NCBI GenBank assembly: GCA_008632985.1
Contig: QPGO01000066.1
Span: forward strand, 1-64,000
Source: Psammoneis japonica
Lineage: Eukaryota
Direction of reading: 5' to 3'
DNA: 64,000 nucleotides
The position numbers and the translations under genes were made by a program. The notes under the pieces are model-generated. The model saw only the letters and a list, made by a program, of their open reading frames with translations, did not search any database and was not told the DNA's origin. Below, piece after piece: positions 4,152 through 61,707 of the stretch. The stretch's first letter is position 1. The number at the start of each line of letters is the position of its first letter.

Positions 4152-5700
4152 CTTGTGAAACACCAATGTGCTCAATGCCAAACAAAGCATGCTTTGATGA
4201 CTCATCTCCCTCTGATCAACAATCCACCTCAAGAAATGTGCCAATGATCTTAACGCTGTTTTCAACAGGCAGCCGGGGAGGAGATGTGCGCAGGCGTGCC
4301 AGACTCAAGTCGTTAGATGTGATCTTGTTTGCACCTTCACACAGGTGTTGCCAGCTCGCTTTGGGTGGGGGTGATCCCAAGATGTCTCTCATGACAGATG
4401 TCTTGAGACAGCATCTGGCAACTCCACTGAGATGAAGCATGCGCGCAGAGTTTGAGGTGTGCCGCTCATTGACAACACTTGGCAGCTTTGTGTGGGACAT
4501 CTGTTCTGGCTCAAATGAGTGCCCCTGGGGTTTGCTCTGCTGCATCACCAGGCACAGCCACACAGGCACCATTCTGTTGGGCATTCTTGTTTTTGGCTGT
4601 GGGCCTCCAAAGGCAACAGAGTCAGGCCACACACACGGTGGCGTGTGTGGCCAGCGACACAAAACAAGAGCCAGGGCTCGCAGAATGGCCATGTTGGATG
4701 CTCCCAGCTGAAAGGGAAAGAAAAAGCAAACAAATGCAAAACTGACCCCAAAACCACAACATTTTCCAATCCTGGGGGTGTCATGTTTTGAGTCACATCA
4801 GAGCTGCAATTCCAGCCAACTGCAAGTCCTTTTTTTCATCATTTTCTTAGAACAAAACAATTGGCTGGACTTTGCAATGAGTGCAAGCAGACCTGCCTCA
4901 TCTGATGTTGCATCACTTTGACATCTGACAACATGCACAACTGCCCTGTGGCATTGAAAAAGTTTGCACAGCTCCTCCAGCGCCTGAGCATTGTGGCATC
5001 AAACATCTTGGGCACTTTGTGGCCACAGCCTTCAAATGTTGGGACAACTCCTTGAGTTTGGGTTGATGCCCAACAACAAGCTTTGCCCTGCATGGTTGTT
5101 TTCATTGTTGAGTCATCAGCACCATGACAAAAGTTGGGATGAGGTCACCCATGCTGCTGTTTGTTGCATTTGTCATGGTCCACTCTGCCCATGTCAGACA
5201 ATCTCATGTTTTTGCACCTGGGCTTGATGAGGACAGACACATCTTGACATGTTTGCTGCCAATGAAGAGGGCTTGACCACATTGAAAATTCAGGCACAGC
5301 TGTGATTGACAAAATGGGGAGCAGCACTGGCACCTGACCAACCTGCATTCATTTCAAAAGGCTGGCCAGATCAGCCTCTGCAGTTTTCTTGCTTTTCTTC
5401 TGAAGGTGGGTGGGTGCAGCAGCCCCAAAACCCAAGAAGCACATCCCAGCATCAAGCTTGACTTGTGAGGCTGTGTGTTGTGATGGGGCATCAGACCAGT
5501 GCACACTTCATCATGCAAAGCTTTCTCTCTTTGCTGTGTGTTCTTCACTGCCAATTGCCTTGCTTTGTTAACCTCCTTGTGTGCAATGGATGTGATCTTA
5601 TGGAGTCGGACACGGTCCAACAGTCTGTAGCTCAAAAGCATGCCAAAGGAGCGTTGGAATGCTCATGAGAACGATTGTGCAGCAAAGAAGGGATGACGTG
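4152..5700. other. TpA-depleted hypermutated domain 1 (unassigned insertion between the two GT92 paralogs)
   Basis: Only a handful of TA in ~1.5 kb, CpG rare, TG/CA strongly enriched. The flanking genes have normal TA content. Confidence 0.8.
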
Positions 5701-5835
5701 TAACTCCCTGTCAATTTCAATGTTGAGTTCTAGCTTGCAGTTAAACGGGCGACCAATCCGTAGATGGCGGCGCTCGACCAGTGTTTTCTAGCTCTATGCA
5801 TCGTCTCAAAATATCTACTGACGGCAAAAACGGAA

Positions 5836-7092
5836 TCATGATTGATGTCGAAGCCTTCTTCTCACCTCGATATCCAATTTTGCCATGTCTTTAATAGCTA
5901 TGACTCGTTGTTCCTGTGTTAATTCCAGAGCTTTTTTCTTTCCAACTCGCTGTGAAAATAATTTTAGCCATCCTCGAATCTCGTCATTCGTAGCGGCAAT
6001 TCTCCCGATCTCGGCGAGGCGTGATTCATATTGCTCGTCCGATTTTCGACCCTTGCATTCTTCCCTAGGACCAATGTAGTGATGCACTCGAAACAAGGCT
6101 TCTGCATAAGAAGCAAAAGTGTTGTGAACACACAGAGCGTCCGTTATGTGGTGTGGAGACCGTACTTTACTTCCATCATAGCGAGAGGCATCCATCAGTG
6201 GTTTTCCTGGATATCTGTTCTGGTATGGCTGATGATAGCGATACCGAAGTGTATAGAATTGATTTGGATCAAACCCGTCCGGAACTTGGGAGTAAGTTTC
6301 ATTCGGAAGGCTCTCGTTGTTTGAAAATAGAACGCGGGGCAATGTCATGCATGGCTTATCAAAATGCCAGTATCTGTCGGTGCGGTTCAACTCACTGGCT
6401 AAGTAGTGTGCCACCGTAGCCTCCCCGATTTTGGGGAGTCTTGATCGTGGATGCACTCCCTTCTCAATGTCGTCATGAAACTTCTTCGTACATGCAGCGC
6501 GTTCAGAAATGTTTACATGGCGACAGTAGGGCCTAGCTTCCTCATTTTTGTCGTAGTCGTTGAAGACCCAATACTCATCGGGATCAATGAGCACTGTCCA
6601 AGTCCTGTTCTGCCTTTTTAGGGAATTCAGACACGACTGCAAAAATGCCTCTTGACGTCGTAGAAAAAGTTTGAGTCGTTCTGTTCTGTTAGCCGAGGGG
6701 TTAACGTACTGTCCCTTGTTCAGATAATCCTCATCCTTCCACATTTCGATGGTCATATTTGGCAACGTACGAAATTTCTCCAGAACCGGTTCTGGCGACA
6801 TTTTGCTGTAGGGATCTACCGCAACAATCAAGTGACGAAGAGGCAACACTTCATAATGATATGCTATCCATTCAGGCAAGAGGTGATTGTCCTCCTTGAC
6901 AATGAGACAAGCCGACATGTCAAACGGGAAATCAGTTGGTGGCGAGGGGGATGATGATTCGCAGTCCAGAGATTCACACCTATCTTGGGTGTATTGTAAA
7001 TACCAATCGAGCTGAAACGTACTGGCGAAGAGAACAAAGTAAACGAACAATGGGATGAAAACCCATCGTAAGACGTATTCCCAGTTCTTCAT
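5836..7092 (-). CDS. Glycosyltransferase family 92 / GT2-like type II membrane protein, paralog 2
   Basis: Intact ORF starting MKNWEYVLRW (upstream ATG at 7134 possible). Motifs SACLIVKEDNHLLPEWIAYHY, LIDPDEY and RVHHYIG. Confidence 0.8.
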   Translation of the reverse strand: MKNWEYVLRWVFIPLFVYFVLFASTFQLDWYLQYTQDRCESLDCESSSPSPPTDFPFDMSACLIVKEDNHLLPEWIAYHYEVLPLRHLIVAVDPYSKMSPEPVLEKFRTLPNMTIEMWKDEDYLNKGQYVNPSANRTERLKLFLRRQEAFLQSCLNSLKRQNRTWTVLIDPDEYWVFNDYDKNEEARPYCRHVNISERAACTKKFHDDIEKGVHPRSRLPKIGEATVAHYLASELNRTDRYWHFDKPCMTLPRVLFSNNESLPNETYSQVPDGFDPNQFYTLRYRYHQPYQNRYPGKPLMDASRYDGSKVRSPHHITDALCVHNTFASYAEALFRVHHYIGPREECKGRKSDEQYESRLAEIGRIAATNDEIRGWLKLFSQRVGKKKALELTQEQRVIAIKDMAKLDIEVRRRLRHQS

Positions 7093-7630
7093 TTTTCCTT
7101 GGGTGCTTTGAAGAGCAATTATAGCTAGCAGCATGAATTTGTGAGACTCTCATTCATGTGTTACGATCTTTTGACAGCCGCGTCGCGGGGATTTGTCGAA
7201 GATTCCAGATTTCAATCCCGAATTGAGAATCATAGAGTCTAATCCCGCGAACTCGTTCAAGTCCCGCAATTTGGAACTATTAGAGTACGTTTATTTTAAA
7301 TTGACTGAACCGACGCCCAACTCTCCATTTCACATTCCAGCAAGCTATTAGGGCCTAACTTTACTACTAGAGTAGCTCTAGAGATTATACTACGTTCTCG
7401 AAGCGTTGTGGCGATGATGCGTGTCATCTCTATGCCAGGCCTATGTCACTCTCATACCTCGAGGCCAACAGATGATTGCACTTCTGCTGTGACAATTTTT
7501 CAGGAAGAGTAGTGAGTATCTCTAGTTTGTTCATAGTTGGCAGGATGATGAAAGCCTTTTGGTGTGACTGTGATTATAGATATATGTAGGGTTCTGAAGT
7601 TTTCGATATAGCACACACAAAGACAACAAT

Positions 7631-9709
7631 CTACTCGAGAGCACCAGTCTTCTCAAAGAATTCCAACAGAGGACTCAAATGATACCGCAAGTTCTGAATC
7701 CCAAATCCAATACGCAAGTATCTAACGCCATTCACAATTTTATAGTCCAATCCATATGGGAGAGACGACACCTCTTTTGATACCGGGATTGCCAAGGTAT
7801 TGGACTCGGAAACGGCTGCTAGCTGTGACTCGGATAGTTTGGCGCGTTTTACAAATTCAGCCTTGATTGTTTGAACGTATTCGTGCTGAGCTGCAACGGA
7901 CGGAAGTGACTTGACAATACGTGATGCAATAAAGGCGGCTTCAACCCATGATGGTGTGCCACCGTCCCACTCGAGACCGTCATCGTACAGCAGACGGTTT
8001 GTCTTGGTATCTACTGTCTTGTTTTCCTCAAGTCCACTGAGGTATGCTGTCCACCCACTAGACGGTTCTCGAATCAATCGATCGCTTGAGCGAGAATATG
8101 TCATGAAACCGAGACCTTCTCCACATCGAGCATGCTTGATGAGCGATCCGACAAAAAAAACGTTTGGACGAGTCGCCAAGGAATTTAGGTGGAGCGGAAT
8201 GTTTGCAACTCCTTGGGTTACGTCGACTATAACAATAACACTTGTAGGAATGCTTTGTATCCATTCCACTGGCATGACGCGTTGAGTGCAAGAATTGACG
8301 AGAGAGACCAGAACAAGCTGTTGAATGCATTCGTGCTCCTTCTTTTCTTCTTGAACGTGCGAATTGACAATGCTACACACCAACTCATCTGCGGGTACGC
8401 GAGATATGGAGGCTCCTTGCAACACGAGAATGGACGCAGCTCGTTCCAGTGTTACAAATTCGTCGTCCGTGAGTATTACATTCAACTTTGGAGAGGCCAC
8501 GAGACGAACGGACGTCATGATTCTTGAGAGTACTTCCGTGACGCTCGAACCGAGTCCAAATCCAACGACGGTACTGTCATTCAGACCGAGCAATACACTC
8601 AACTCATGACAGAACGAGGGGCGGGTTTCATGATAATAGTGTTCCCAAATGGCTGATCGTTTGTTTCGGCGAGTCTCTAAAAAGTCTGATCGAGCTAGCT
8701 CGTACTCCTTGGGCTGAAAGCCGACCGAATGAGTTCCAAATTCGCACCCTGGGTCCACAAACACGTCCAAGTAGTGACTCGCAAGTGGGTATGTTTCGTA
8801 GTCATATAGCTGGTGCATCTCAATTCCGATACCTACAATGGGCGAACGAAGTGACCCCAACGCCTTGAGCAATCTTGAATTATGCAATCGACGGAGTACT
8901 CGATCTACGAGAATTGTGTTGGGTGTGCCTTTTGTACCACTCGTAATACCGATTGCGGTCATTGCGGTGACAACATGATCAAACCAACAACGGGAGACGG
9001 CGTCAAGAAGATCAATAAACGCTTCGGCAACGCGTCCCGCTGGTGTCCTTGTCAACATCGCATTCGAGAGTTCTTCATCTGAGAATGACTTGAAGTAAAA
9101 TTCCAATCCGCCCGTCTTTGCCGTCAAGGGCATCATGGCTGGTGAATTACCTCCTGAGACTCCCGCAAGACTTGGAACGTAAAGCAAGTATTTAATGCGA
9201 TCTAGCTTTGCAACTCCGCAAACTAGGCTTCCAACGGCATTCCATCCGTTGGCGGCATAACGGCACTCTTGCTCAATCTGTTCAACGTGGGTGTCCGACA
9301 AGTCATTCAAGCCATTTGACTCTTCAACCAAATGGCAGATTCGTTCCAAGCTTGGCTTGAGAGCATGAAGTATGAGTTCGATCCGTTGGTGATGCGACAC
9401 AAAGTGTTCTCGAAGACTGTGAATCTCTGCCTCGCTAAGCTTGCCTTGACAGCGTTGTTCGGGAAGTCGGACGTTGTCATACCAACGAATTCTCGAATAA
9501 AGAGTCGTGGGAAGTGCCACAACAGGCATGTCAGCCCAGCAATGCGGTGTGGGGCAGCATTCGCATGACAAGCTGTCCCAAACGGAGCGATACGACGTGA
9601 GCTCTGCTGCTTCCACAAGGGCGTCGTAGGCTACCCAACTCTTGTAATAGTCCGCAGCGCTTGGTTCTTTCCCTGAATTCATAGTATTCGAATACTTCTT
9701 TGGTGTCAC
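7631..9709 (-). CDS. PLP-dependent fold-type I (class V aminotransferase / kynureninase-like) protein with long N-terminal extension
   Basis: 692-aa ORF (first ATG at 9682). Motifs TDDEFVT, VDVTQGVANIP, FFVGSLIKHARCGEGLGF (putative PLP lysine), WDGGTPS and YLRIGFG. Confidence 0.7.
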   Translation of the reverse strand: MTPKKYSNTMNSGKEPSAADYYKSWVAYDALVEAAELTSYRSVWDSLSCECCPTPHCWADMPVVALPTTLYSRIRWYDNVRLPEQRCQGKLSEAEIHSLREHFVSHHQRIELILHALKPSLERICHLVEESNGLNDLSDTHVEQIEQECRYAANGWNAVGSLVCGVAKLDRIKYLLYVPSLAGVSGGNSPAMMPLTAKTGGLEFYFKSFSDEELSNAMLTRTPAGRVAEAFIDLLDAVSRCWFDHVVTAMTAIGITSGTKGTPNTILVDRVLRRLHNSRLLKALGSLRSPIVGIGIEMHQLYDYETYPLASHYLDVFVDPGCEFGTHSVGFQPKEYELARSDFLETRRNKRSAIWEHYYHETRPSFCHELSVLLGLNDSTVVGFGLGSSVTEVLSRIMTSVRLVASPKLNVILTDDEFVTLERAASILVLQGASISRVPADELVCSIVNSHVQEEKKEHECIQQLVLVSLVNSCTQRVMPVEWIQSIPTSVIVIVDVTQGVANIPLHLNSLATRPNVFFVGSLIKHARCGEGLGFMTYSRSSDRLIREPSSGWTAYLSGLEENKTVDTKTNRLLYDDGLEWDGGTPSWVEAAFIASRIVKSLPSVAAQHEYVQTIKAEFVKRAKLSESQLAAVSESNTLAIPVSKEVSSLPYGLDYKIVNGVRYLRIGFGIQNLRYHLSPLLEFFEKTGALE

Positions 9710-10838
9710 AGCTTCTCCAGACTTCTACAATCCCGCAAATTGTGAGAACACTAAAAAACGAGGAGACATCCAATGAAACCAGAATTCTGTTTAGTCGTGG
9801 GCGTGTCAACCGGTCTTGCCAGCACTTGGGGACCACGTATGACATTGCCATAAACGCGACCGCACACTAAATCGAGTTCTCAACGCAACGTCTGACACGT
9901 GACATCGCAAGTAGTTCACACCAACACCGCTTGTTGTCAATGGCTGATTGCGCTTGTGAGTACCAAGCCATTTATATCGACTCCTTCCTACTCACGAAAC
10001 ACACAAAGCTCAATTTGTGGGATTGTCGCAAACACGAAAACTCTGACCGCGTCACTGTTTGTCTGTGTGACCACTATCTCGTAATTGCGCTTGCAGCATT
10101 TATGGAGAGTCCCTGTGATCTAAGCTTGAGAGGGATCTGTTGCAAACGGCATGCAACGCAGAAACGAACGACGCCAGTGGCCTCCATGCCGCGAGAAAAA
10201 TCCAATGCAGTGTGGCGGTTCGTTGCCAACATGGCATCTTCTGAAAATGGTCAGACTGCGAAAGCATGAGTGTGCTGATGACACTTTCTGACATTGTGGA
10301 GAGAACGCGGAACCGGCCAACGGAAACGTTGTTTCCCTTCGCACATCGCGTTTCGGTCACCAAAGGTAACTTATCTCTCCTCTCCATTTCGAAATTTCGA
10401 ATTGGGCCGGCTGCTAATGAGTATACTGAAATTTGAATACAAATTTATAGCAGTTCCCGTGAGTGGTTGTATATACTTATTATGCAACAAGGATGTCTAT
10501 TTCGGTCACTATCAAATATATAATGCTTATATTAGATGACGACGAACCTTTTTTTCATGAAATTTTCTAATTGCACGGCTCATTGCGCGCCAACGCGCCA
10601 ATTTTGTGTCCGTTCAGACGACAACGATAGCCCAACGCATACGATATACTCCTCACGACTGATGAAAGTATAACCGTCCTCAGAAACGCGCGCCACATTT
10701 TGTCTCTTGCACAGAAAAAATCAATCACTGACCTACTTCAACGGTCATATTGTTGCTGTTTGTTGTTTCAGTTTTAGCGTTCTTTTACAACAGAGTTGCT
10801 TTGCACATGCACTGGGGTAACATCCACATACAGCGAAA

Positions 10839-12335
10839 ATGATGGAAGACGACTGGGACTTTTCTGTTCCAACCAGTACGAGTTGTGACATTGGTGATCC
10901 GATCGAGTCGTCACGCGATAATGCAAATAACGCAACCTACACATCACCGATCCAAGAATTGGCAGCATCCGTGGTGCAATCCGTTACGGATTTTGCCTTG
11001 CCGTGGTCCAACAATGACGACGGATCGCTTTGTAACAAGGCTCGCAAGAACTTGGAATGCCGAGAAGGAAACAACTCCTTCATTAGCGACGCCACATACT
11101 TTGTCAAAATGACAGCCAATTACACCATGCAACAACAACAGGATACCGAACAAGAGGACGAAGTATCTCATGACTCTCCACCGTCAGTGATTTATACACC
11201 ACCAAGAAATCAAGGATCACAAGACGATGAACTACCAGAACTGGAACGTATGTCTCCCGATTCCACGTCACCAGAGGAAGAAGATGAAGAAACCAGAGAA
11301 GAAGAACACTCGGTAGAGTCCACTCCACCACCGGCTCCGTCTCATCCACCGCCAAGGATTACTGCTGACGCTGACGATGAAAAGTCGGGCGATGATTCCG
11401 ATTCTGGATTGCCAATGCCGCCACCGCCTCCCCCGATTCGGTTGGTAAAGAACCATCGTCAGCAGCGACACGAAACCGAGACTCGCAATCTCGCGGACAA
11501 TGTTCGCCGCGATGTGTCTATAATGGATCCGCCATTGAATATTGTAAACGAAGAAGAATCCATTGATTCCGAGTCTTCCGGACTACCCATTCCACCACCT
11601 CCTCCGCTTCCTTTTGCCACAAATCAACAACGACACGAGACGGAATCTCCCAACCCGGTGGATACTATGCGCCGCGATGTGTCCATCAGGGACACTGCAC
11701 CGTCTCCACCGCCGTCTCGGGCACCTCCCAAGACTATAACGGTGGGCGATGGAGACTCCATGTATTCCGATTCCTCCGGACTCCCCGTTCCACCGCCGCC
11801 GCCACGTCCGCTCCACGTTGCGGAAAGCAAGACCCGCGAGAGGAATGTTCACAATCAAGCTCTACCGCGCCATGTGACATTCAAGGATGACGTGGCTCCA
11901 CCATCGCCCCTATCGGATTCACCACCAAGGGATAGTACTGATACTCTTGACAATGCCAAGTCATTCGATTCGGACAGTTCCGGATTGCCAGTTCCACCGC
12001 CGCCTCTTGGCCAACAACGACACGAGGTGCGCCATTTCGTGCAAGATATTCGCCGTGATGTATCCGTCATGGACTTGCCATTGCGCAACACCACAAATCT
12101 CGGCTTGAAGAAGAAATCAAGTCGGAGGAAGAAATCCCAGAAGCGCGTCCAATTTGCCCAACCCGTCGTGACGGACATTAAACTACGTCCCATTTCAACA
12201 CGGGAGGAAAAGAAACGGCTCTTTTTTACATGGGAGGAACTGACAAGATTAGCCATGGAGCGGGCTTGGGAAGAAACAGAAATTATTACTCTTGACCAGC
12301 GACAATCGCTGGGAGTAGGAAACGGTGAAATATGA
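10839..12335 (+). CDS. Proline-rich low-complexity protein with four DS(D/E)SSGLPxPPPP repeats and a C-terminal RVxF-like motif
   Basis: 498-aa ORF. Repeated SGLPxPPPP...QQRHE...RRDVS units, then KRVQFAQPVVT near the C-terminus. Confidence 0.75.
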   Translation: MMEDDWDFSVPTSTSCDIGDPIESSRDNANNATYTSPIQELAASVVQSVTDFALPWSNNDDGSLCNKARKNLECREGNNSFISDATYFVKMTANYTMQQQQDTEQEDEVSHDSPPSVIYTPPRNQGSQDDELPELERMSPDSTSPEEEDEETREEEHSVESTPPPAPSHPPPRITADADDEKSGDDSDSGLPMPPPPPPIRLVKNHRQQRHETETRNLADNVRRDVSIMDPPLNIVNEEESIDSESSGLPIPPPPPLPFATNQQRHETESPNPVDTMRRDVSIRDTAPSPPPSRAPPKTITVGDGDSMYSDSSGLPVPPPPPRPLHVAESKTRERNVHNQALPRHVTFKDDVAPPSPLSDSPPRDSTDTLDNAKSFDSDSSGLPVPPPPLGQQRHEVRHFVQDIRRDVSVMDLPLRNTTNLGLKKKSSRRKKSQKRVQFAQPVVTDIKLRPISTREEKKRLFFTWEELTRLAMERAWEETEIITLDQRQSLGVGNGEI

Positions 12336-12577: not shown

Positions 12578-13697
12578 TCAATTCTTTCTCGAGTACTCTC
12601 CTCCCGCCACAAGACTCACGATATTTGAGATGCTCTTTCTCTTGCTGAGTGTTCTTCCCGATTGAATCTTTTGAATTTCCTTTTGAATCAAATATTGCCT
12701 CCATGCGTCTCTGTATTGGGTATTAAAGACACCGCCCACTGCATAGGCTGGAGCGATTCGAGCAATGCGTGCCGAAACGACCGAAGTAAAGCCCTGCAGC
12801 AGAAATCGTGTGCGATCTCGAAAGGCCGCCATTCTAGTCGAGTTTTCCATGGGTCGATTGTAAAAGTCCAGTCCCAACATTTGAATGGGCCCCACGACAA
12901 ATTGGGTCGCAATGGGACACGCCACTTGGGAAACGCGCTTGGCTGTTACCGGATCCATGTCGGCCTCTTCTTGGAGAGTCTTGCCGAGCATGTCGGGTAG
13001 AATAAAGGATGATCCCACCACTAGACAATCTCGGGTCGCCCAGAGTGCATAGGTAATGTAAGGCATGCTGGCCACTCCAGAAGTGCCATACATGCGGGCA
13101 TAGGCTCTATCTTTCCACAGTGACGCCAAGGAATTCACACTGTGGTCCTGCAAACACGCCAAACTGACCAAACGATACTGAACTACTCTTGTGCTTCTCG
13201 GATGAATTGTGTTGTTTGGATTGCATTTCTTCATGGTGCAAATGCTCAGCAACCGTCTTGAGGGAATTCGCCGTGGCATACGTGGCAGCGTAGACACCCC
13301 ACATCATGAGAAAGGTCGGACTCTTGATAAAGGTGATTGGATTGCGCACCATGTGGGACACCGATTGGATGGCTGATGCAAATATCGATTTCTGCGTCCC
13401 TGCCGAGTGTTGCACAATGGCTTTGTCAACGACACACATAAACGGCGCGACGCCAAAGGTCACTCCGGCTGCCACGGCAACATCTCCAAAGATTCGTTCC
13501 TTTAAATTTCCAGAGTGCAAAAGGCGGGTGTAGGTTTCAGATATTTTTGTGTTTTGCCGTTGAATGCCATTCAAATTTCTTGGAGGCAAATTATTTGAGA
13601 TGGTGTTGCTACTTCTTGAAAAGTCATCCGCTACAACAGAAGTTCCAAGCACTTGTTGTTGCTCCCGCGACATGATAGGATCTTGTGGATTTCTCAT
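12578..13697 (-). CDS. Conserved hypothetical membrane protein (frameshift near 13145)
   Basis: ORFs 13107-13805 and 12578-13297 join into one protein (APFMCVVDKAIVQ, WGVYAATYATANS, LWKDRAYARMYG, ALWATRDCLVVGSSF). Confidence 0.65.
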
Positions 13698-14117
13698 GGC
13701 TATATCTTTCTTGTACACGAAAAGCTTCTTTTGAATTGTGAGCAAGCAAGACAGGCCTAAGGTATTCAGCAATTGAATTCGAGCAACAATTCTCTCGCAG
13801 GCCAAAATGATGTTCTACACTCTTTCGTCCTTGTATGGGTCTAGTTGTTCTTGGGATGAGTGAACTGATTCTTGTAAGGTCGAAGAAAGGAAAGCACGAG
13901 ATTCATTCAGAATTCGAACAACAGATTGTTCTCAGGCCGAAATGCTCGTCAAAATGTGAGCAGTATGAACAAGTTGGTCACTTCAGTAGAACTCACGTGA
14001 GACCACAGTATGTGACGTAATCATTTCTGTGAACAAACTTCTGACGTGTCCGTTGAGTCATGGGTGTTCGAACTATGAATAATGAGTTCTTGTGCTTTCT
14101 CATGAGTCGATGTTAGT

Positions 14118-14185
14118 TAGATAGATACATACTGTAGAAAGATAGACAGATGCTGTAGATAGATAGATAGATCGATAGAAGATAG
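14118..14185. repeat. Imperfect (TAGA)n microsatellite
   Basis: Runs of tagatagata are visible in the intergenic region. Confidence 0.7.
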
Positions 14186-14439
14186 ACCGGCACTTGTGAG
14201 TTTGCCGGATCATGGTGTACTTCGTCTTCTAGAGTTTCATTCGACTTTTTTCAGTTCAAAAAGTGCCACGCCGGCCGATGTGGGAACTGATGGACTCCGT
14301 ATGAATTCGTGTGTTCCGTAGATAGGATGTGTTGTCAAAGATACATTAAATTCGTTTAGTAAGTAAGTAAAAAATGCAATAACAGCGGAAGCACGGGGGC
14401 GAATGTGAAGGTCGGACATGTGAGACGTCACAACGCCTC

Positions 14440-17055: not shown

Positions 17056-17352
17056 CTTCAGAGTCTGCGTCGATGGCAGTGGGGAAAACCGAGTCAATGT
17101 ATGATATTGCAGAATGTGAGGCTTCGTGCCTACAACGAACTGGTATTTTCTGACCTTGTGCTTGTCGCTTTTGTTTGCTGCGCTCCCCTCAGTGTCTATG
17201 ATGCTTGATGCTTGCTTTTTGTTACGGATGAGAACAAAAATCTTTCGATGTGTTCGCGGATATCTTTCATGGTACAAACTCCCGTCCATTTCTACGCAGG
17301 GACAGATTCCCGCACAAATTCTCACCGATGCGAGCAGGCAGCTCGCTCGCTC

Positions 17353-26120: not shown

Positions 26121-26228
26121 AGTTGGGTCAAAGGCCCGCATCACACCTGCGCCCCAGAGATTTTACAACGATGGCTGGCAGTTTTGGATTGATGACCCAC
26201 CTGTTGTTTGTGTGAATGTGAAGACATC

Positions 26229-46400: not shown

Positions 46401-49148
46401 CTGCCTTGGTCATGGCCAGCTGCGTGGCAGACACCCACCACCTGTTGAGCGCAAGATGAGCTGTGCAGCGCCGTCTTTGTCAGCGCCAGTTGCACCTCTT
46501 CCATTGCCCCAATTTTTGCCACCCACCAGCAAAAGAACATGGGAGGTCAGGCAAATGTTGCAAGCCTGCAAAAACATTGCCAGTGAAGGCTCAGCAAGGT
46601 CAAAGATGGCAAGGACAAGCAAAGTTTTTCTCGTTCCGGGTGGGTTGCAGGCCCGCTGACAAGCCCCCCTGCAACAGACTTTGCTTTCCAGAGAGAGCTC
46701 AGCACATCTTTCAAGCAAGGAATGGAGTTGCCAAGCTCTGCTGCCCCCGCTCAGACAGCTCTGCCAAGAGTCAAACAACGTTGGCTTGTTTTTGGTCTTG
46801 AAAAAGTCTTGTGCAAAAAAAGTGCCGCAGCCCCACAAAAGAGTGCAGAGCACACTCTCATCTCTTTTCATTGGCACAGCTCCAAACACTGATCTGCTTG
46901 GCTCCACAGAGGTGAGCGAAGGGAAGAAGCCGTTTCACCAGCAGCTGTGTGTGCACAGCTGCGGTGCGCAAGATCCAGCTCCAGCAAGAGGGGCCTGACC
47001 AATGAAAGCTCTGACCAGCCACAAGAAATTCTGAGGGGGTCGAGAGGAGCAAAAGCCTGCTGGTGGCGCCAGCAATGCTGCTCATTGCTGAGAATCAGTG
47101 AGAAACCTTTGGTGGCAACCTCACACATCTGACACGCACACTGCTGGCGCATGCAAGGTGTGGAGGCAGATCGGCATTTTTTTACCTGGTGTGGGCAGAA
47201 GGTTTTGATTGACTCAACTCGAGCGAAGCGAGAGGAGTCATCTTGCAAAAGCAACCCAGATGTCAAAGTGGGGAGAACTGACAACTGCACAAGCACCCAT
47301 CACCAAAGGCAGCTGCACTCAAGGACAAGGAATGGCATGCAAAGCAAAATGCAACATGCAGACAAGGAGCTTGTGCAGAGAAACAGGGTGTCCAGCCAGC
47401 ACACCAGCACCAGCAGAGGAGGCTGCAAAAGGAGGCAGAGCACAGGAGCACAAAGAAGCAAGAACAGAAGCCACCACAGAGGGGGGGAGAGCCTGCACAG
47501 AGGACAGTGGCATGTGGTGTGCCTTGAAGAACCAGGTGGAAGGGGTGAACAAACAGTTGTGAGATGCTTTGCAGCACAACCCAGCAAAAGCTCATGCTGC
47601 CCCAGCAGCCCAGCCAAGAATCTTTGTGTGTTGTCCATGACCAAGCAGCACCATGAAAAGTGTTTTCAACACCACTTTGGGGTGTGACCCAGTTGTCATT
47701 GAGAGCTGCCTCACAAAAAACTGCTCCAGTGCTTGTCGACGAATGTCCAAGAAGTGCACGCGCGAAAGCTCGCCGGAGCTTGCTGAAGATGTCTCTCTGC
47801 TGCTGTGCACTGCTTCTGTCAAATGAGAGCACAAGCATGTGCTCCATGACCTCTTTGCAGAGCTGGGCAATCATCTTTGCAGCTTTGGTGTTTGGTGCAG
47901 CAGAGCTCCCAGCACAAGAATGCCTCTCTTTGCTGAGAGGCTCCAAGGCCATGGGAACAGCAGCAGTGTCAGCAGCAAAAAGCAGCTCTGCTGTGTGTTG
48001 GAGCAGCAAGCAGCCAGAGCAACAACAACAAAAGCAAAGAAAAGAAGAAAAGAGCAGAAGTTCACAGGCGTGCAGCATCTGAGGTGGGGCCAGAAATGAT
48101 TTCCAGCGTGTGCCAGTGCAAGGCAAGCAGCGGCAAAAGCAGGGTGGGAAAGCAAAGGCTTGCTTTGGTGAGGATGGCATGGGCAAAGTCAAGAAGCCAC
48201 ACAGAGAGAAACAAGCCAACTTGGTGCAGTCTTGGCACCAGGTGGTGGCCAAAGAGTGCACACCATTGTGCGCAGCAACTGCTTGTCAGGTGCCAGCCAA
48301 CAAGAGGGCTCAGCAGCGGCAGTGCTGGCCAGCTCCCAGCTGCCAGAGCTCAGCCAGCCTCTCACATTGACAACTCAGAACACTCTGTGGCAGAGTTGAA
48401 AAGCAAAATGCTTTGATCACTGTGTGCAGCATGGCGGCAGGAAGGAAGTGGGTGAGACAAGCTTGAGGTGAGCGAGTTGAGCTTGCTCTCCTCTCTCACA
48501 CACTGCAAAAGAAGAAACAACAACAGAGAGACAGGAAACAAGCAACAGCTGACAACAGCAATTCTTTCTGCTTGGGATGCCGTCACATTTTCTATGTTCA
48601 CTGTCCTCGTTGCTTGCGTGAGACTGGCGACATTTGTGCCACAAGATCTGTCTTCTCCGAGCGCGCTGCCGCATGACGGCGTTTTAAAGCTGTGTTTGAC
48701 TAACTTGATTAAAATGACAAAGGGGCAATGTGTGATGACTCAAAAAATTAACCCATTAAGTAAGTAACAATTCGCCTTTATGTACCGTACATAAGGCGCA
48801 ATTACTTAAAAAGGATGACCTTCCACGTCAGCGCTGTCGTTATGTACGGTATCCCACACTGTTTGACGACCTGCCGGCAGATCAAGCCTGCAAAATGCAG
48901 ACAAGAGCAGCTGTTCGTCACCGCGTGCGCGCGCCCCCCGCCCCAACGCGTGCGGTCATTGTCAAAAAGTCAATAGTCACTGCGGTCATCCGCGAATGCG
49001 GGTCACAAATCACAAGAAGCAAAAGGCTCGCGGATGTTGCAATGGCTACGAAGCTCGCTGTGAGCGCACTTTTCTCGGCTCTGCTAGCTACGAGAGAGAC
49101 TGTGCCTTTGTTGTGCAACTCCTCTTTCATTCGTCTTTCCCAATCAGC

Positions 49149-54434: not shown

Positions 54435-55899
54435 TGTATCGTAAATCAAAAAAGAGCAAATGGCAAGGTTTTGTTTGTTAGAGTTGCGCCATGGCGTGTG
54501 ATAACGTTTGAGAGATTTATTCGAATGTTTTACGATGTTAGGAATCTGTGCTTCACCCAGATCCTGAATGGCCTTTTCTTTCACAATCTTGTTGGAGCAA
54601 CTTTGATGACAACTCATCTCTTAGAACTGCCCCAACCAACACCATTGCTCAACATAAGATCTGATTCTTTGACTCTCGGCTTTGATGTTGTGTGACATGA
54701 CCCTTCCTGCCTCCTCCTCTCCTCTCTCTGCACCAAAGACAGTGTGCCAAAAACTCTTCTTCAGCAAGAGCAGCTCTGGCTTGGAAATGTTGGCACCGGC
54801 TCAGGCGCACAAAGGAGTTGTCCACTTTACAGGGTCAGTGCAGGAAGCAAGCTCCATGAGAATGCAGCAGCAAAACTCACCCATGGAGGAGGAGGCAGCG
54901 CGGTCTTTTGACTCTGCACTCCCGGAGATTTGCCTCTCCTCTCCTCAAGGCAGCAGACGACACTCCCGGAAACTTGCCTCAGCTCCTGAAGGCAGTGGAG
55001 GACCAAGAGAGTGAAAATGGCAGTGCCAAAGATGAAATGGTGCTGATGATCCCAAAGGACCCAGCCACAGCAGCTTGTGATGATGGCTGTGTTGTGGAAG
55101 TCTCCTGGGTTGAAGATCCTGGGCAGATGTCAAGCTGGGGCTGACCCAAGCGCTTGGGGAGAAGCGTGTCAGCAGTCAGAGCTGTGCCACACAAGACACA
55201 AGGATGATGCACAAGGCAGTTGTGGGAGCGCTTTCCAAGGAGGCAAAAGAGGAAGCAAAGATCTGGCTTGGAGAAAGCGGGCGAGGCTGGAGCCCATGTC
55301 TCTGGCAACCTGCTCTTGAAGGCTGCAACTGGTGAGAGCAGTTGTCTTGACACTGATGCCACCACTGGCACCAACCACACAAAACTTGCTAGTTTCAACC
55401 CTTGCTTGCCAACAATTGGATGTGGCACAATCAAGTTCAGCACATGTGTCTCCCTGCTCCTGGCAGTGCTCACCTCACAAGGCGAGACTGCTGAAGACTT
55501 GCCCACTGATTTGTTCCAGAGATGCTTGGCTGTGCCTGACAAGGTCTTTGTCTGTGACTCACAACTGATGAGGACGTGCAAAACTGCAACAAAAAGATCT
55601 GGATCCTCGCTTTCATGATGAGAGACTTTTCCAGGAAGCGTTGTCTTTTCTCATCTTGTGCGCTGCCAGTTGAGCAAACGGACAGTGCACAGTGCATGCT
55701 TGAAAAGAAAAAAGTGTGGAGTAAAAATAAAAACAAACAACAAAAACCAGACGCAAAGAACGAGATCTTATGTCCCAAGCAAATCGGCATCAAGATGATG
55801 GCACAGAAGAGCAATTTTTCCTTGCATTGGTCCTTCTGTCTCTGTGACAGGCTCACTTGCATTCTGTCTCCTGATGCTCCAGTGTGCTGGCAAAAGGAA

Positions 55900-56549
55900 C
55901 CATTCCGGCAGATGCAGGGATGGTGCAACAACGTGCATTCGCAGCCATCTGTCAAGGCATTCAGACTGGCATGGATGATGTTTTGGTCGACACCGGCAGT
56001 CGTCCAAACTTTGCCTGTGGCAGAATTCACAAAGTCCATGGTCACGCAAGTGTTGGCGCCGGCGACAACCGGCGAACCCAAGAGACGGACAACGCAGCTC
56101 ATAGAGACAACATTGTTCAACTGCGGGAAGCATGGAAGAAGGGCTTTCTTCAGTGCTGACGCCAACGTGTCAACCGGACCAAGAGCTTGCCCGCTCTGTT
56201 TGAAAAACGTGCAGATTGTAAGAACAGTCAACAAGCATGAGCGGAAGGCAAACCATTCTTGTGCTTTCTGTCGGCAACTCACCTCCTTGACAATGATTTG
56301 CGACGTTTCAACTGTGATTGTCACTCGTGAGAGCTTCTCCTCTAAGCCATCCTCAATGTGACAATGCCTCCGATGCCATTCCAAGGCACGGGGCACGCTC
56401 GGAACGACCACACTGCAGTTGTGGACATGGAACGGGAACATGTGCTTGATCGCTGCATGGCAAACCATGAGTTGGAAAGAAGCATTGGCAACCTCAAAGG
56501 GAAAGCCAATGGATTCAAGCCATCTGGCATGCTGGACAACCCCAGTCAC
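55900..56549 (-). pseudogene. Citramalate/isopropylmalate synthase C-terminal (LeuA allosteric) domain remnant with an intron at 56282-56196
   Basis: LESIGFPFEVANASFQLM, GPVDTLASALKKAL and WTTAGVDQNIIHASLNALTDGCEC match CimA/LeuA C-terminal motifs with Tyr>Cys changes. Confidence 0.7.
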
Positions 56550-57824
56550 TCACCCATTGGAGCCATCTTGCTCGGTGACCCCCGCATCCCTGAGGTTGTC
56601 CACGACATTGCATCGCTGGACAAGAGGGCTCTTGGGAAAAGCAGCAGACCATGGAAAATCTGTGATTCTGTCGACAATGCTTTGTCCAGAGACGCAAGGA
56701 GGGCTGGTCACTCCTGCGTTGTTCAACTGTGGGCGCAACTTGTGGCCAAGCAGAGGCATCTCAGGCCCAGAGCCATGACTGCTGGTGCAAGCTTGGACGA
56801 GCGCAGCGTTTTTGCAACTCAACTCGATCTCATGCTGAACAAAAGAGATGAAGGATGCATGTGAGATTGGTGCGTCAACCCTGCACAAACTTTCTTTGCT
56901 TCTCCTGCTTGCATCGACATCTGGTTTGTTTGCCATCATCCCATCTAAAATGCAACAGAATTGCAAAAGGTGCAACGGTTCATGGCCGTGTGATGCATTT
57001 CCATGGCGCAGCTCTTTCAAAGCAGAGACTTGTTCACAGACAAATGGGTGCTTTGCTGGCACACTAGAGTCTGGCCGTTGAACGTGGTCTTTGTGACAAC
57101 ACTGTTGAACAAAGTCTAGCATGTGTGGATGCCAAGCATTGGGATCAGCCAAAGTGGGCGATGGTTTCTCACAAATGAGATGGGAGACTGTGCATGGGCT
57201 GCAGTCTTGATGAGGGGGTTGTTCACCTTGTGCCATTTCAATGACGGTGGTGATGGCAGTGGACCATGTGTCAGCTTTGTGGCCATTGCAGGGAATCTTT
57301 TGAAAGACTTCTGGAGCCATCCAGTGTGGAGAACCAACAAGTGTCTGGCACTCACAAAGAGTTCTTGCATGTCTGGCAGTGGATGAACCCAAATTGGCTA
57401 ATTTGGCTTCCCCGTTCTTGGTGATCAAAATGTTGTCTGCCTTGATGTCACGATGGCAAACCTCCGGGACTGCCTTGGCATGCAAGCATTCTAGAGCTGC
57501 AACCACCGAGGCACACACATGTTGAATGCAGACTTCTGGCATTGGCTTTCCAAGCAATTTTTGGCATCTCTCGACAAGCATCAATGAGGTTCCGAGCTCA
57601 CAGCACTCCATGACGATCCACCTTTCAGTTCTCGAAGCATCGACAAAGGACTCGACGCACTCGACAATGAACGGACATTGCGTTTGTCGCAGCACTCTGG
57701 CCTCTGGCTCATCTGTGCTGTCTTGTGACTTGCCACCATGAATCAGAATGATTTTCGCAGCATGGTGTGCCAATGTCTTTTTGTTTTGAACCAAATGTGC
57801 GTGACCAAAAGACCCTGTGCCCAA
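56550..57824 (-). pseudogene. STE20-like Ser/Thr kinase pseudogene
   Basis: GTGSFG, AAK, WIVMECC, HRDIKADNIL and GSPHWMAPE are present, but DFG is degenerate (ANLG). No Tyr in 424 aa. Confidence 0.85.
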
Positions 57825-58147
57825 AAATCCTTGAAATCATGTGCTTGGGTTTAGGGTTGGGAGTCTGGACAGCAGAAGAGAAGGAAACAAAATGAGATGG
57901 TCAAATCGCAGCCGTCGCTGATTCACATGAGGAACAGTGCTCCTCTTTCCCTCCCACAAAGCACTGTCAGGGATGCACGACTCCAATGACACATGCATTC
58001 ATCGATGAAAGAGTGTCAGCACATAGACTCTTGTTAGAAGAATCATGATTTGCAGGGCAATTGGAGTGTCTCAGCATGCATTTCAACAGGGAGAGCATGC
58101 TTGGCAGCATGCTGGCTGGCACTGTGTTCATCGCGACTTCACTTCAT

Positions 58148-59421
58148 CTATGTTGTGTGTTGCACGCAGCCATGACTTGTGACTCTCAAGTGGGCGATTG
58201 TTCCCTCGGGACAGTGATCACAAACGCAAAGAACGGATGCCCACAGTTGCTCCCCCTGCAAATGTCGACTGCCATTTTCAAGGCCTTGGTCTTCAGCGAC
58301 CCTCTCAGCCATTGCTGGAAAGAAGCTCGCATCCTCAAAGTTGGCGAGTGGGGAGTTTGGAGGTTGTGGTGCAAGCTCCCAACCGCGTTGAGAGAATTCA
58401 CGATCAACACCGGCCACGAGAAGCTCATCAATGTGCTGTGTTGTGTTGTCCAACTGGAGCCAAAGATGCACTCGTTTTCCCGCATTGTTCTCCACCCTCT
58501 GAGCAACTGCTTCCAACTTTGCCAACAGAATGTTGTGCGTGCAATCCCACAGAGAAAACTTTGGATTGCTTTCCATCCCCGAATTCGATCCAGTGACCTC
58601 CCAATTCTAAAAGTGCTCCTCGCCTTTGCGACACAACAAGATCTCCAGGAGCTTTGGACAATGGCATGTTCCATCAGCTCTGTGTGCACGGTGATGCGAG
58701 TTCTTCTTCGCCTTCACCTTTCCACAGGCACGAGCACAATCGACCTTGCACGCACACCCCCCTCTCTGAAAATTGTTTTTGGCAGGAGCGAATGCTGCTG
58801 TCACAAGTCCCAAGACCTCATCAATGTGATTTTTGTGGTGTGCAGCATGAGCCTCCGGCGCACAGCTGCCAAGGAATGGAACGTTTTTGTTGAATTGGCA
58901 AACCACCAACAAGCAGAATCACTTTTCATTCATGTGCACAATCAGAACTTGTGTCAGCAATGCCACCATCTTGGCCCCGCGCCAAAAGACATGCCAAGCA
59001 ATTGACCAATTCTTTTGTGTTGCTGAACACAAGCAGCAGTGAGCACAGGAAGGATCCGAGCACTGGCATGTGATGAATCCGGCAGCAACACAACAAAATG
59101 CATCAACGTCACATGAGTCATGGGTTTCACATTCGTGTTTCTGCCCACGACCAACGAGGCAAGCTTTCTCCAAGTTGTCCATCCATTGGTCTTCCTCAAG
59201 ATTCTCCCAACCTTGCCCATCAAGAATGCACTTTGTTGTTTCAATGTTTTGGCTCCTTGGACAAACGGCCCATGGTTCTCTGCAGCAAGCAACTCAAACA
59301 ATTGTTTTAACTCACCATCGTCAAACCGTTCCCTGAGAATCAAGATTCTTTGATGCCGCTTGACGCACTCACATGGAGCACGCACCTGCTCCCACTTTTT
59401 GTTGGAATTGAATGCTGTCAC
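58148..59421 (-). mobile_element. Decayed Tc1/mariner transposase (plant/oomycete DD39D-like)
   Basis: VHMNEK*F (cf. VHIDEKWF), HKNHIDEVLGL, QLDNTTQH (cf. QQDNAxPH) and QPPNSPLANFEDASFF (cf. QPPNSPDLNVLDLGFF). TIRs not identified. Confidence 0.75.
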
Positions 59422-60297
59422 ACACCAGCATCATGCCGCTTCTTCCTCAATGCGTCATTGTTTCGTGCTCAAGAATGCGTTTGTGTGTCCTGCCAATCGT
59501 CTTTTTCATTGAACCCCAAGCGTGCGCATGATCAGCCAGTGGATTTGCCCCTGCATGGATCTTGGATGGAGTCAATGCATTTGTGATGTTTTGAGTGTCA
59601 CACAGCAGCCTTCTCTCAAGTGTCAACAAATGAGATTTCGGTTTTGGGACCGGATGACCGGCAATTGCAGCCTCCACCTGGCACATCCACCCTTTCTCCT
59701 TCGATTGACCTTGTCTGAGGTGCTCCACCACTGGATGCTTCCTCCCACCACCGCTCATCAACCAATCTTTTGCTTTTAGAAGAGCACCAGCAATGCCCCC
59801 AGGTCTTTGTTGTGTTTCCGTCGCTCTTGTGTTTCCACCATTGATGCCGCAGAGTTGAGCTTGTTCATTGTGTTCTGTCATCAATGTCGATGGTCGTCGA
59901 GTTTCATTTGGTGATCGCCGACGAGCACTCACAGCCAATGAGACGCCGGGTTGAGTCTCCCCAGAACAACATCAAAACTGAGACTGTTGTTGATTGCATG
60001 CCTCACATGCACTGGGCCATTGGCAGCATTGAATTCCGTGATGCAGCTGGTTCCACCTTCACTGTCGGGCCATCCCGTGTGGTGTTCCGGCACCACCTGC
60101 ACCCAATGCACCAATTGAGTGGACGCTTGGATGCAGTGGAGGAGGGTCCATGATGTGGTGTCATCGCACACAAAGTTGCAGTTGACAGCATGAGCAACAT
60201 GTCTCATCGTTGGTGCGGCGGCAGCAGTTCCATGCGTTTTGATGATGTTGGGTCATGGGTCGTGGATGCTTTTCCCTCCGAGACTGCTTGTGCAGAA

Positions 60298-60662
60298 GAT
60301 GGGTTCCAGTCCAAGGTGGGACTTTTTGTGACATTGGGCCCACAAAATTCTGCGTGCGAGCTCCGCAGCAAAATTGTCAAGCAATGGATGCATCAATGAT
60401 TGCCAACAGAAAAAGAGGCAATTTTGCAAATGTGTCTCCTCCTCAACACTTGAAGTGCATTCTTTGAAGAACACACCCAGTGCATTTTCATTGTCACAAA
60501 TGCAGACAACAGAAAGCCTTTGGCTTTGTAAAACAGGCAGTGTGGAACAATTTTTTATAACAGAACATGTGGAAATGTGCATGCAAAACATGCGACGGAT
60601 GACAAAAAATAATTGTGTCACAGTTCAGCAGTGCGAGGTCCCACCTGGAGCTGGAACGCGTC
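60298..60662 (+). mobile_element. MITE family A copy 3 (365 bp, diverged subfamily)
   Basis: Termini GATGGGTTCCAG...GGTGGG and CCCACC...CTGGAACGCGTC with 4-bp TSD AGAA. Internal blocks are shared with 28123-28518. Confidence 0.82.
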
Positions 60663-60779
60663 AGAAGCGGCACCTCGGCACACAGCCCAACCAAAAAGAA
60701 TGACACGGTGTTTCACCATGGACAATTGTCGCTTGCTGGAGGAAGCACCAAGAACCTCCAACTTTGCTTTTTGGTTGCT

Positions 60780-61200
60780 CTGGTTGCAATCAAAACAGTG
60801 CCAAAAAACAAAAGCAACTCACCGCAAAAACTTGCACACCACATTCCAAAATGATGCATGGTGGATTTTTGGGAGAAAAAACTGGGTTGAAATTGATGTG
60901 TCGGCTGGCCTGGTTGATCGCAAAGCAAAGTGCACTTAATTATCCATTCATGACCAAGGCATGACTCACACAGGAACATGTAGAAAATGTGCTGAGCTCC
61001 TCATTCTGCACTTTTTCGATGATCTGGATGCGATCGAAACAGTGCCAAAACACCTGGACCAATTGACCACCAACACTTTTGCAGAAAATGGTGAATTGCA
61101 TGACAGATCTTTGGGAGAAAAGACCGGGTTGAAATTGAGGGCCATGCTGAACTTGTTGAATGGAAGACAAAGCACACTTGGCGGCCCAAAAAGTGCACTT
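60780..61200. repeat. Two degenerate direct-repeat units
   Basis: aaacagtgccaaaa...tttgggagaaaa...gggttgaaattga occurs near 60790-60897 and again near 61037-61138. Confidence 0.5.
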
Positions 61201-61707
61201 GCGACTGAAAAGCACACTTGCGACTGAATGCCGCACGCAGAGTTGCACACATGGTCATCTGGCACATTGGAAAAGGTGCACTTCAATTGCACTTGAGTGC
61301 ACTTGTTTGTCTTTCCTCCATGAGCCATGATGCAGGATGCAGAATTTAGAATGCAAACCGTGCAAACCGGGAAGAATCATCGCACTTTTTTCATTCACGT
61401 GAGCCTCAGTCGTGAGTCAAATTGAATCATCATCGCGCTCGTCGATCGATGAAACGGCGGCGTCGTACTGTAGTCGTAGCATTCTACGCAATCTTGGAAT
61501 TTCAAATTATGACGCTATCGATGTTCTTTGTTACGTCATTACTTCAACTCCTTCGTCTGTTCTTCGCGACTGCTCACAAAATCATCGCGTGTCAAAGAAG
61601 TTTTCAGCGAGAGAAACCGGCTGTTTCAGCGACTTATTGACATCACTTTCTCTCCTCTTTTCTGTTGATGTCTCGAGTGTATGCAACAGACGAGTAATAT
61701 ATTGGCC

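Follow-up and report, generated by a model that had tools for sequence, protein, structure and literature searches.

TpA-poor islands of mobile and dead DNA in a 64-kb stretch from a probable diatom, and the transition processes that may have produced them

TA-poor domains and their contents

The stretch of DNA analysed here, hereafter called the window, comprises positions 1 to 64,000 of contig QPGO01000066.1 (assembly GCA_008632985.1, listed under Psammoneis japonica). It contains genes of normal composition and four sharply bounded domains that are almost free of the dinucleotide TA and that together occupy ~36 kb of the 64 kb (57% of the window). The domains contain a Ty3/gypsy retrotransposon, a foldback element, old repeats and remnants of genes for a protein kinase and a family GH2 glycosidase. 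When observed/expected ratios (O/E) of dinucleotides are calculated for the whole window in 1-kb windows, TA O/E is 0.00-0.14 across 18-27k, 29-38k, 46-47k and 55-60k, compared with 0.41-0.74 in the genic flanks, and TG/CA O/E is 1.5-2.2 in the TA-poor 1-kb windows, compared with 1.0-1.4 in the flanks. The TA loss and TG/CA gain that an earlier note on this DNA had proposed to look for in sliding windows are thus seen, the calculation being run on the window alone. Domain borders were obtained from a two-state segmentation run on TA positions. This segmentation gives the five TA-poor segments listed below, and its borders lie within ~130 nucleotides (nt) of those that the earlier note had given for four near-TA-free domains, confirming that description. 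In the list, features without a strand sign have no strand assigned; LTR, RT and ORF stand for long terminal repeat, reverse transcriptase and open reading frame, respectively.

4026-5568: TA-poor island 1 (TA O/E 0.04, CG O/E 0.27; 4 TA against 62 expected)
17466-28175: TA-poor domain 2a (TA O/E 0.05, CG O/E 0.27), mostly unrecognisable
29015-38993: TA-poor domain 2b (TA O/E 0.05, CG O/E 0.20), containing repeat block C, a GH2 fragment and the larger part of the retroelement
41483-48684: TA-poor domain 3, with two parts differing in CG
54656-61465: TA-poor domain 4 (TA O/E 0.07, CG O/E 0.51)
27051-33190 (-): hypermutated Ty3/gypsy LTR retrotransposon, with RT, RNase H and an integrase remnant between LTRs
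27388-28209 (-): integrase remnant (rve, E 0.002, a weak match below the Pfam cut-off)
29016-30149 (-): RNase H (RT_RNaseH, E 1e-18)
~30104-30700 (-): RT, matching the solved Ty3 RT 4ol8 (E 8e-12)
31561-32766 (-): long upstream ORF of the retroelement, an open frame
28118-29091: foldback (hairpin) element with nested inverted arms, inserted into the retroelement (TA O/E 0.27, CG O/E 1.01)
60293-60668: second copy of the foldback element, by similarity to that at 28118-29091
17751-20302 (+): old repeat block A, with diverged relatives B (22351-23162) and C (35626-36902)
36918-37046: GH2 fragment in domain 2b
43547-45336 (+): GH2 beta-galactosidase-like pseudogene in three reading frames (solved chain 7cwd, E 4e-13)
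56553-57836 (-): STE20/SLK-like protein kinase pseudogene (E 6e-40 to solved kinases), an open frame of 428 amino acids (aa)
55473-56549 (-): ORF immediately downstream of that of the kinase, containing a LeuA_dimer-like remnant

TA O/E of the segments is 0.04-0.12, compared with 0.55-0.65 for the intervening genes, and their TG and CA O/E reaches 1.5-1.9. With the expectation taken from the window's own normal segments (40.2 TA per kb), 35 TA are found where 431 are expected in domain 2a, 36 of 401 in domain 2b, 52 of 290 in domain 3 and 28 of 274 in domain 4. The deficits of the five segments, island 1 included, have Poisson P values of 8e-22 to 2e-135. CG O/E is 0.20-0.60 inside the domains and ~1.0 outside. 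In the deep domains TG O/E is 1.77 and CA O/E is 1.82. The G+C content of the domains is 0.46-0.50, i.e. unchanged, and AA/TT O/E is nearly constant (1.15 in normal DNA and ~1.24 in the domains). Domain 2 is split by an insert of 839 nt (28176-29014) with milder TA depletion. The two parts of domain 3 have TA O/E of 0.14-0.21 and CG O/E of 0.8-1.0 on the left, up to ~45.5k, and TA O/E of 0.02-0.03 and CG O/E of 0.22-0.25 on the right. Pfam scans recognise no domain in island 1 and no family in ~20 kb of the depleted DNA, and Rfam and tRNA scans of the window give no matches.

The TAA and TAG stop codons are lost together with TA. On both strands, 129 TAA and 93 TAG are found in 36.2 kb of domains, compared with 459 and 435 in 26.9 kb of normal DNA. 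Long false ORFs appear in the domains because these two stop codons are gone: 190 of the 275 ORFs of at least 90 aa overlap the domains, with long ORFs in all six frames, and a 355-aa ORF in depleted DNA is not recognised by a protein atlas. Judged from its sequence, the kinase gene is dead, its 428-aa open frame notwithstanding, because its DFG motif reads NLG; the frame is still open because the process removes TAA and TAG. Tyr is absent from all 428 residues of the kinase ORF and from all 359 residues of the adjacent LeuA_dimer-like ORF, and these two ORFs contain 5.8-6.9% Cys and 4.5-6.1% His, compared with ~2% and ~3% in four normal ORFs. A word-based protein search with the mutated kinase gives a single match, at 33% identity, probably as an effect of the mutation load. 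TA-poor domains are therefore a hazard for gene prediction and mask homology from word-based searches, and the dating of transposable elements from LTR divergence would be distorted in them.

The retroelement has the Ty3/gypsy order of RT, RNase H and integrase between LTRs, with all parts degraded. Its LTRs start at 27051 and 33021, and a contig built from public sequencing reads (run X1, see below) joins 32999 to 27051. When metagenomes are scanned with the RNase H ORF, a single related locus appears, at 27% identity, which does not help in finding unmutated copies. The foldback family is extremely abundant in X1, with a summed word depth of 19000-37000, compared with ~60 for single-copy DNA. 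The depleted DNA thus includes a Ty3/gypsy element and high-copy repeats, but also remnants of cellular type (kinase, GH2 and LeuA-like).

The TA-free sequence exists in the reads. Of the words sampled from 13000-22999, 96% are present in X1. Contigs were rebuilt from the X1 reads and placed on 13000-32999, matches being counted from 85% identity. One contig of 8849 nt, with a word depth of ~60, spans 17413-26258 with 6 substitutions and 3 indels, and agrees with the window at 8840 of 8849 positions. This contig reproduces the TA-free sequence at ~60 depth, in favour of the earlier note, which had recommended a check in raw reads. If the domains were an artefact of sequencing or base-calling on heavily modified DNA, which the unrecorded platform of X1 and the possibility that X1 is the assembly's own data would leave room for, the ~60-fold read contigs would not be expected to match the window so closely. 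Furthermore, every TA site is resolved consistently, to TG or else CA, and the domains also resemble old dead DNA in their CpG decay, their indels and their frameshifts. Illumina data also gave this signature in a chlorarachniophyte, Bigelowiella natans, according to the main text of a preprint (Mettrop et al., bioRxiv 10.64898/2026.01.13.699255, 2026). A sequencing artefact is thus highly unlikely.

Direction, context and timing of the change

The earlier note had deduced the direction of change, from TpA to TpG or CpA, from protein motifs in which a conserved Tyr reads Cys or His. The seven of its motifs with four or more residues were searched for and are all present, at the following positions.

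30227-30238 (-): CVDD
30380-30400 (-): CCHIELD
29817-29828 (-): HPDH
29730-29741 (-): VACW
57480-57494 (-): LECLH
57309-57329 (-): PHWMAPE
43983-44012 (+): WWCEGGGLHR, where the solved GH2 chain (7cwd) reads RWYSGSGIYR

To polarise the kinase, 119 homologues were used, obtained by searching 1.8 billion proteins in full with HMMER. In six columns, at least 50% of the homologues have Tyr; the pseudogene keeps Tyr in none of these columns, which read Cys (four, encoded by TGC), His (one, encoded by CAT) and Phe (one), whereas the conserved residue is kept in 84 of the 137 other conserved columns (Fisher P 0.004). None of the five aligned Tyr residues of Ty3 RT is kept, three being Cys and two Phe, and two Tyr residues of the solved GH2 chain align with Cys and His. 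The choice between Cys and His shows no clear pattern with the base before the Tyr codon in ~14 cases. Alignments of depleted segments to nearby normal genes are short and weak, and were left out of the polarisation.

One alternative is that no hypermutation has occurred, either because the domains are of foreign origin and had their composition from the outset or because selection removed TA. Some viruses and phages do avoid particular dinucleotides. However, conserved Tyr reads Cys or His in three unrelated protein families, and the kinase, which lacks DFG and 53 of the 137 other conserved residues, is not under selection. In addition, copies of the same repeats differ by TG/CA swaps, as described below, and other genomic copies retain TA. 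A foreign or selected composition is accordingly a most improbable explanation.

Comparison of copies supports the same direction. A self-comparison of the window by BLAST in a purine/pyrimidine code gives mostly noise, owing to the two-letter alphabet and invalid E-values, and only matches with E below ~1e-20 were kept. The copies of repeats A, B and C differ chiefly by transitions and by adjacent CA/TG swaps; two GH2 fragments also appear in this comparison of the domains. An adjacent CA/TG swap is expected where two copies resolved one ancestral TA (or CG) differently, the first as TG and the second as CA. The old repeats contain 17 such swaps in 400 aligned columns, 12 in 288 and 10 in 375, whereas two normal paralogues contain just 3 in 1271 columns despite 332 differences. 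At one site, three copies read CA, TA and TG. Copies of the retroelement elsewhere in the genome, as represented by X1 contigs, have TA at positions where the window reads CA, and the aligned X1 copies vary at 339 transition and 83 transversion places, a count that includes older divergence. The arms of the foldback element are 92% alike and differ by 36 transitions and 7 transversions in 428 columns, half of the transitions sitting in 9 adjacent CA/TG swaps. The LTR alignment is noise past the first ~200 nt, so that only a 78-nt block and the LTR starts were used; the block contains 55 identical positions, 21 transitions and 2 transversions. These results show that the change runs from TpA to TpG or CpA, on both strands, in situ and after insertion. 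The direction proposed in the earlier note is thereby borne out in Tyr to Cys/His replacements, copy swaps and the LTR pair alike, and it is supported that the mutational change is confined to islands of mobile and dead DNA, the neighbouring genes being untouched.

The LTR pair also bears on the possibility that the RNA of the element was edited from A to I by an ADAR-like enzyme and then reverse transcribed, so that copies arrived already mutated. The 5' U preference of ADAR, also cited in the main text of the preprint (10.64898/2026.01.13.699255), agrees with a change at TpA. However, LTRs are identical at integration, and these have since diverged by 21 transitions in 78 nt. The two strands are hit about equally (TG 1.77, CA 1.82), the kinase, GH2 and unclassified DNA outside retroelements are equally affected, and the borders coincide with those of CpG decay. 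The LTR divergence and the strand symmetry contradict this route, which is the least probable of all those considered.

The predominance of transitions likewise bears on a further rival, in which a polymerase of the Y family (Pol eta type) makes errors at WA motifs while heterochromatin is being repaired. The errors of Pol eta favour A:T pairs in WA, notably TA, with A>G as the commonest change, but its spectra contain a large share of transversions. Here, transitions dominate by 21:2 in the LTR block and by 36:7 in the foldback arms, and AA/TT O/E hardly moves, from 1.15 to ~1.24. In B. natans, 230 of 231 mutations are A>G or T>C (10.64898/2026.01.13.699255, main text). Repair synthesis of this type is thus a very unlikely source of the change.

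When mutations are simulated on the normal DNA of the window, TA>TG/CA and CG>TG/CA are by themselves sufficient to reproduce TA, CG, TG, CA and G+C. Surviving trinucleotides indicate that TA sites are not all hit alike. Relative to expectation, TAT survives at x0.04, TAC at x0.06, TAG at x0.16 and TAA at x0.21, and three separate sets of domains agree in this ranking. Among tetranucleotides, ATAT (0), ATAC (0.013) and GTAC (0.03) contrast with TTAA (0.33), CTAA (0.35) and CTAG (0.40). TGC/GCA is the most enriched product, at x1.5-1.9 in three separate domain sets. These ratios point to a putative target preference for 5'-T-A-Y. By-products at ApT (O/E 0.81) and GpC (1.27) are consistent with such a preference, and simulated ApT and GpC fit better when TA followed by a pyrimidine is favoured.

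The domains have lost CpG as well. At ten borders examined, the TA and CG densities switch at most ~40-250 nt apart. At the left border of domain 2a, dense TA extends to 17465 and dense CG to 17424, and this border lies ~40 nt upstream of the start of an ORF for a CHAT-STAND-Macro protein (14440-17427, minus strand). When the window is compared with X1 contigs in depleted DNA, eight of the nine single differences are exchanges between CpG and TpG/CpA, the ninth being TpA>TpG; because of these eight, CpG decay is ongoing in the domains. The earlier note did not report the loss of CG and had held the decay of 5-methylcytosine (5mC) to be irrelevant, but CpG loss in fact acts in the same domains and within the same borders. 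From this decay the domains would be cytosine-methylated, silenced chromatin.

TA loss runs ahead of CpG loss. In 41483-45500 and in the foldback element, TA trinucleotides are at x0.14-0.49 of expectation, with CG at x0.90-1.03. The foldback element is younger than the depleted DNA that surrounds it. The 5mC-driven CpG decay of transposons, including those of diatoms, is alike in a CG O/E of 0.2-0.6, in the gain of TG/CA and in CpG polymorphism. However, it cannot remove TA, which is lost in these two places with CG intact, and CpG decay was rejected as the whole signature for this reason. Fungal repeat-induced point mutation (RIP) was also ruled out, with TpA lost rather than gained and domain G+C at 0.46-0.50. 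The claim of the earlier note that the loss of TA is accounted for by neither of these two processes therefore stands.

Proposed mechanism and related systems

The best explanation, which we consider probable, is that islands of mobile and dead DNA have been hit in place by two transition processes, a fast one at TpA and a slower one at CpG. The fast process would convert TpA to TpG or CpA, i.e. A>G on either strand, and would favour TA followed by a pyrimidine. The slower one would be the ordinary decay of CpG to TpG/CpA expected from cytosine methylation. Both would act after the arrival of the DNA and end ~40-250 nt short of the neighbouring genes, and together they would drive TA and CG into TG/CA at constant G+C. 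Proteins would be disabled without stop codons by replacement of every Tyr codon and many Ile, Leu and Val codons; no stops are created because TAA and TAG disappear. The TpA process would be enzymatic; most likely, a deaminase of TadA/ADAT type would convert adenine in DNA to hypoxanthine, which is read as G. The earlier note had named such a deaminase and Pol eta as candidates, of which the former is kept as the most likely one and the latter is disfavoured, transversions being rare.

The process would be aimed through the chromatin state in which CpG is methylated, rather than through repetition of the sequence itself. The earlier note had called the process repeat-targeted, which goes beyond the data. 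In X1, a depleted stretch of ~8.8 kb (17413-26258) has single-copy depth when matches of at least 85% identity are counted, although heavy mutation could have erased earlier similarity in this stretch and the old repeats are depleted too.

The TpA process is probably of the same kind as the TpA-only hypermutation of B. natans. In 15 mutation-accumulation lines of this alga, 231 of 302 nuclear single-nucleotide mutations lie in integrated giant-virus and virophage regions; 230 of the 231 are A>G or T>C, and all 230 are on TpA (10.64898/2026.01.13.699255, main text, as for the following results). The rate is ~6e-7 per site per generation, 1000x background, in some lines only, and the main target is single copy. 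Genome-wide, there are 124 clusters of windows that are poor in TpA and rich in CpA+TpG, and reverse transcriptase and DDE domains are over-represented in them. As the enzyme, the authors suggest a DNA adenine deaminase similar to ADAT2, and they liken the process to RIP. The earlier note knew of no description of such a process, a statement now superseded by this measurement. In our literature searches for TpA hypermutation, the preprint is the one description found. Diatom-directed searches gave no report of TpA hypermutation, and finds of the searched terms were absent from the searchable text of PMC2806351 (a diatom retrotransposon) and PMC6604790 (Phaeodactylum mutation accumulation).

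To judge from the main text of the preprint, the window resembles B. natans in TpA-only hits that give TpG or CpA according to strand and are nearly all transitions, in the restriction to discrete regions, mobile DNA among them, beside normally mutating genes, and in the long-term TpA-poor, CpA+TpG-rich footprint. The hosts differ, B. natans being a chlorarachniophyte (Rhizaria) and the host here probably a diatom (Stramenopiles). The targets differ as well, namely a retroelement, repeats and dead genes of cellular type here and viral insertions in B. natans. The imprint is far deeper here, with TA O/E at 0.04-0.12 over 36 of 64 kb, compared with a Rho of 0.45 for the region of nucleocytoplasmic large DNA virus (NCLDV) origin in B. 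natans. CpG is co-depleted here within shared borders, whereas CpG has 0 occurrences in the main text of the preprint. A 3' pyrimidine preference is proposed here, whereas the words 'trinucleotide', 'context' and 'flanking' are not in that main text, as distinct from its figures and supplements. The case thus appears to extend a system of the B. natans type to a second, distant and much-studied lineage, and it goes beyond the preprint in a far deeper imprint, in the connection to domains where CpG decays and which are presumably methylated, and in a candidate 3' preference.

The probable diatom origin is indicated by relatives of the proteins of the window, which were searched in a database of 5.8 billion proteins including entries of MMETSP and EukProt. 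Near-identical proteins were not found in it for three queries from the window, whose best identities are 33%, 44% and 71%. All relatives named by organism belong to raphid pennate diatoms, namely Mayamaea pseudoterrestris (57%), a metagenome-assembled genome of Bacillariaceae (52%) and Fistulifera solaris, the last as a member of the cluster of a 29% match. The uninterrupted ORFs in the normal parts of the window (437, 504, 697 and 995 aa) are unlike the intron-rich genes of B. natans, for which Table 1 of PMC12730881 gives 7.8 introns per gene and exons averaging 159 bp, at 45% G+C. The window thus probably comes from a raphid pennate diatom and very probably not from B. natans.

Several points weigh against the explanation by a fast TpA process and a slower CpG process in silenced DNA of a diatom. 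Neither ORF nor Pfam scans reveal a candidate effector enzyme among the window ORFs, in agreement with the earlier note, which had seen no obvious effector gene. Pfam scans also recognise nothing viral in the window. Only one candidate new TpA change, a TpA>TpG at 27301, distinguishes the window from X1. The read check is only partly independent, X1 being possibly the assembly's own sample with its platform unrecorded. Methylation and silencing are deduced from CpG decay alone, and the diatom affinity from three named relatives at ~29-57% identity. The 3' context was calculated with an expectation from coding DNA, used as a stand-in for ancestral composition, and in a partly mutated set the product gains and target losses of TAT balance poorly. 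The fit of the simulation is partial, with ApT and GpC at 0.92 and 1.14 in the simulated DNA compared with 0.81 and 1.27 in the observed one. Finally, A>G on one strand and T>C on the other are indistinguishable in sequence, so that a mechanism directed at thymine on the opposite strand would leave the same sequence.

This last point leads to a version of the same domain-confined process in which the modified base is thymine. An enzyme of TET/JBP type, or another enzyme acting on R-T-A, would give T>C, e.g. through 5-hydroxymethyluracil or 5-formyluracil that mispairs with G or is misrepaired. The T-A-Y preference is equally readable as R-T-A. Dinoflagellate DNA contains 5-hydroxymethyluracil preferentially at TpA and TpC; 5-formyluracil miscodes with G, and 5-hydroxymethyluracil pairs normally with A. 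However, the literature searched gave no sign that diatoms or chlorarachniophytes contain such a base, and the authors of the preprint favour adenine deamination, in its main text also without proof (10.64898/2026.01.13.699255). We regard a modified thymine as rather unlikely, and adenine deamination is retained in what follows.

A wider reading is that diatoms, and by extension several lineages of Stramenopiles, Alveolata and Rhizaria, possess a chromatin-aimed, repeat-independent base-editing defence at TpA that follows the signal of cytosine methylation and, in methylated and silenced DNA, is faster than methyl-CpG decay. A sizeable share of the genome would then have been remodelled into TA-free, stop-poor DNA, and the editing enzyme would have left its footprint in the preference for a 3' pyrimidine. 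Taken as a whole, this reading seems to us about evenly balanced between being right and being wrong.

Such a defence may be compared with other systems that mutate invading DNA. RIP of ascomycetes is alike in outcome, since it produces dinucleotide-specific transitions in mobile and duplicated DNA and spares genes. It is opposite in direction, since C>T at CpA creates TpA, stop codons and AT-rich DNA, whereas here TpA and stop codons vanish and G+C remains ~0.48. APOBEC3 (C>U in cDNA) and ADAR (A>I in RNA) are alike in their likely logic, the inactivation of invaders by context-specific deamination. However, their substrates are single-stranded cDNA or RNA that has yet to be integrated, and the marks fall on one strand, whereas integrated double-stranded DNA is marked here on both strands and after insertion. 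If the host is a diatom, a mutational defence known from one rhizarian alga also occurs in a major, well-studied group of phytoplankton, and it may then be a eukaryotic defence that is ancient or has evolved more than once, a mirror image of RIP in fungi. The link to CpG-methylated domains would provide a handle on targeting and the T-A-Y preference a test for candidate enzymes. In a diatom, the available tools for transformation and genome editing would make the question of the enzyme directly testable.

Neighbouring genes and other repeats

The normal parts of the window and some of its repeats have features of their own.

2620-3889 and 5834-7095: tandem glycosyltransferase paralogues (Glyco_tranf_2_4; a relative is named GT92)
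7631-9724 (-): 697-aa ORF without a Pfam match
10821-12335 (+): 504-aa ORF without a Pfam family
14440-17427 (-): 995-aa ORF with a CHAT protease, a STAND NTPase and a Macro domain
25673-27006: very high-copy sequence
37055-38059: internal tandem-like repeats in domain 2b, beside the GH2 fragment

The two glycosyltransferase paralogues are 74% identical at the DNA level, have normal TA and flank island 1 (1.5 kb). The 995-aa protein has an NLR-like architecture of the immunity type. Its ORF and the largest TA-poor domain are ~40 nt apart, and a functional link to hypermutation is not implied. The 697-aa protein has relatives of 52-71% identity in diatoms and metagenomes, and language-model features suggest, as a lead only, a resemblance to class V aminotransferases/cysteine desulfurases. 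The 504-aa ORF contains at least three internal repeats of ~170-190 nt, with 69-nt cores at 11459, 11624 and 12005.

The high-copy sequence at 25673-27006 has a summed depth of 30000-36000 in X1 and holds a direct repeat of 130 nt, the two copies of which (26209-26339 and 26551-26682) are 96-97% identical. The tandem-like repeats at 37055-38059 overlap a 323-aa ORF, and within them 37267-37381 and 37697-37816 are 87% identical in purine/pyrimidine coding.

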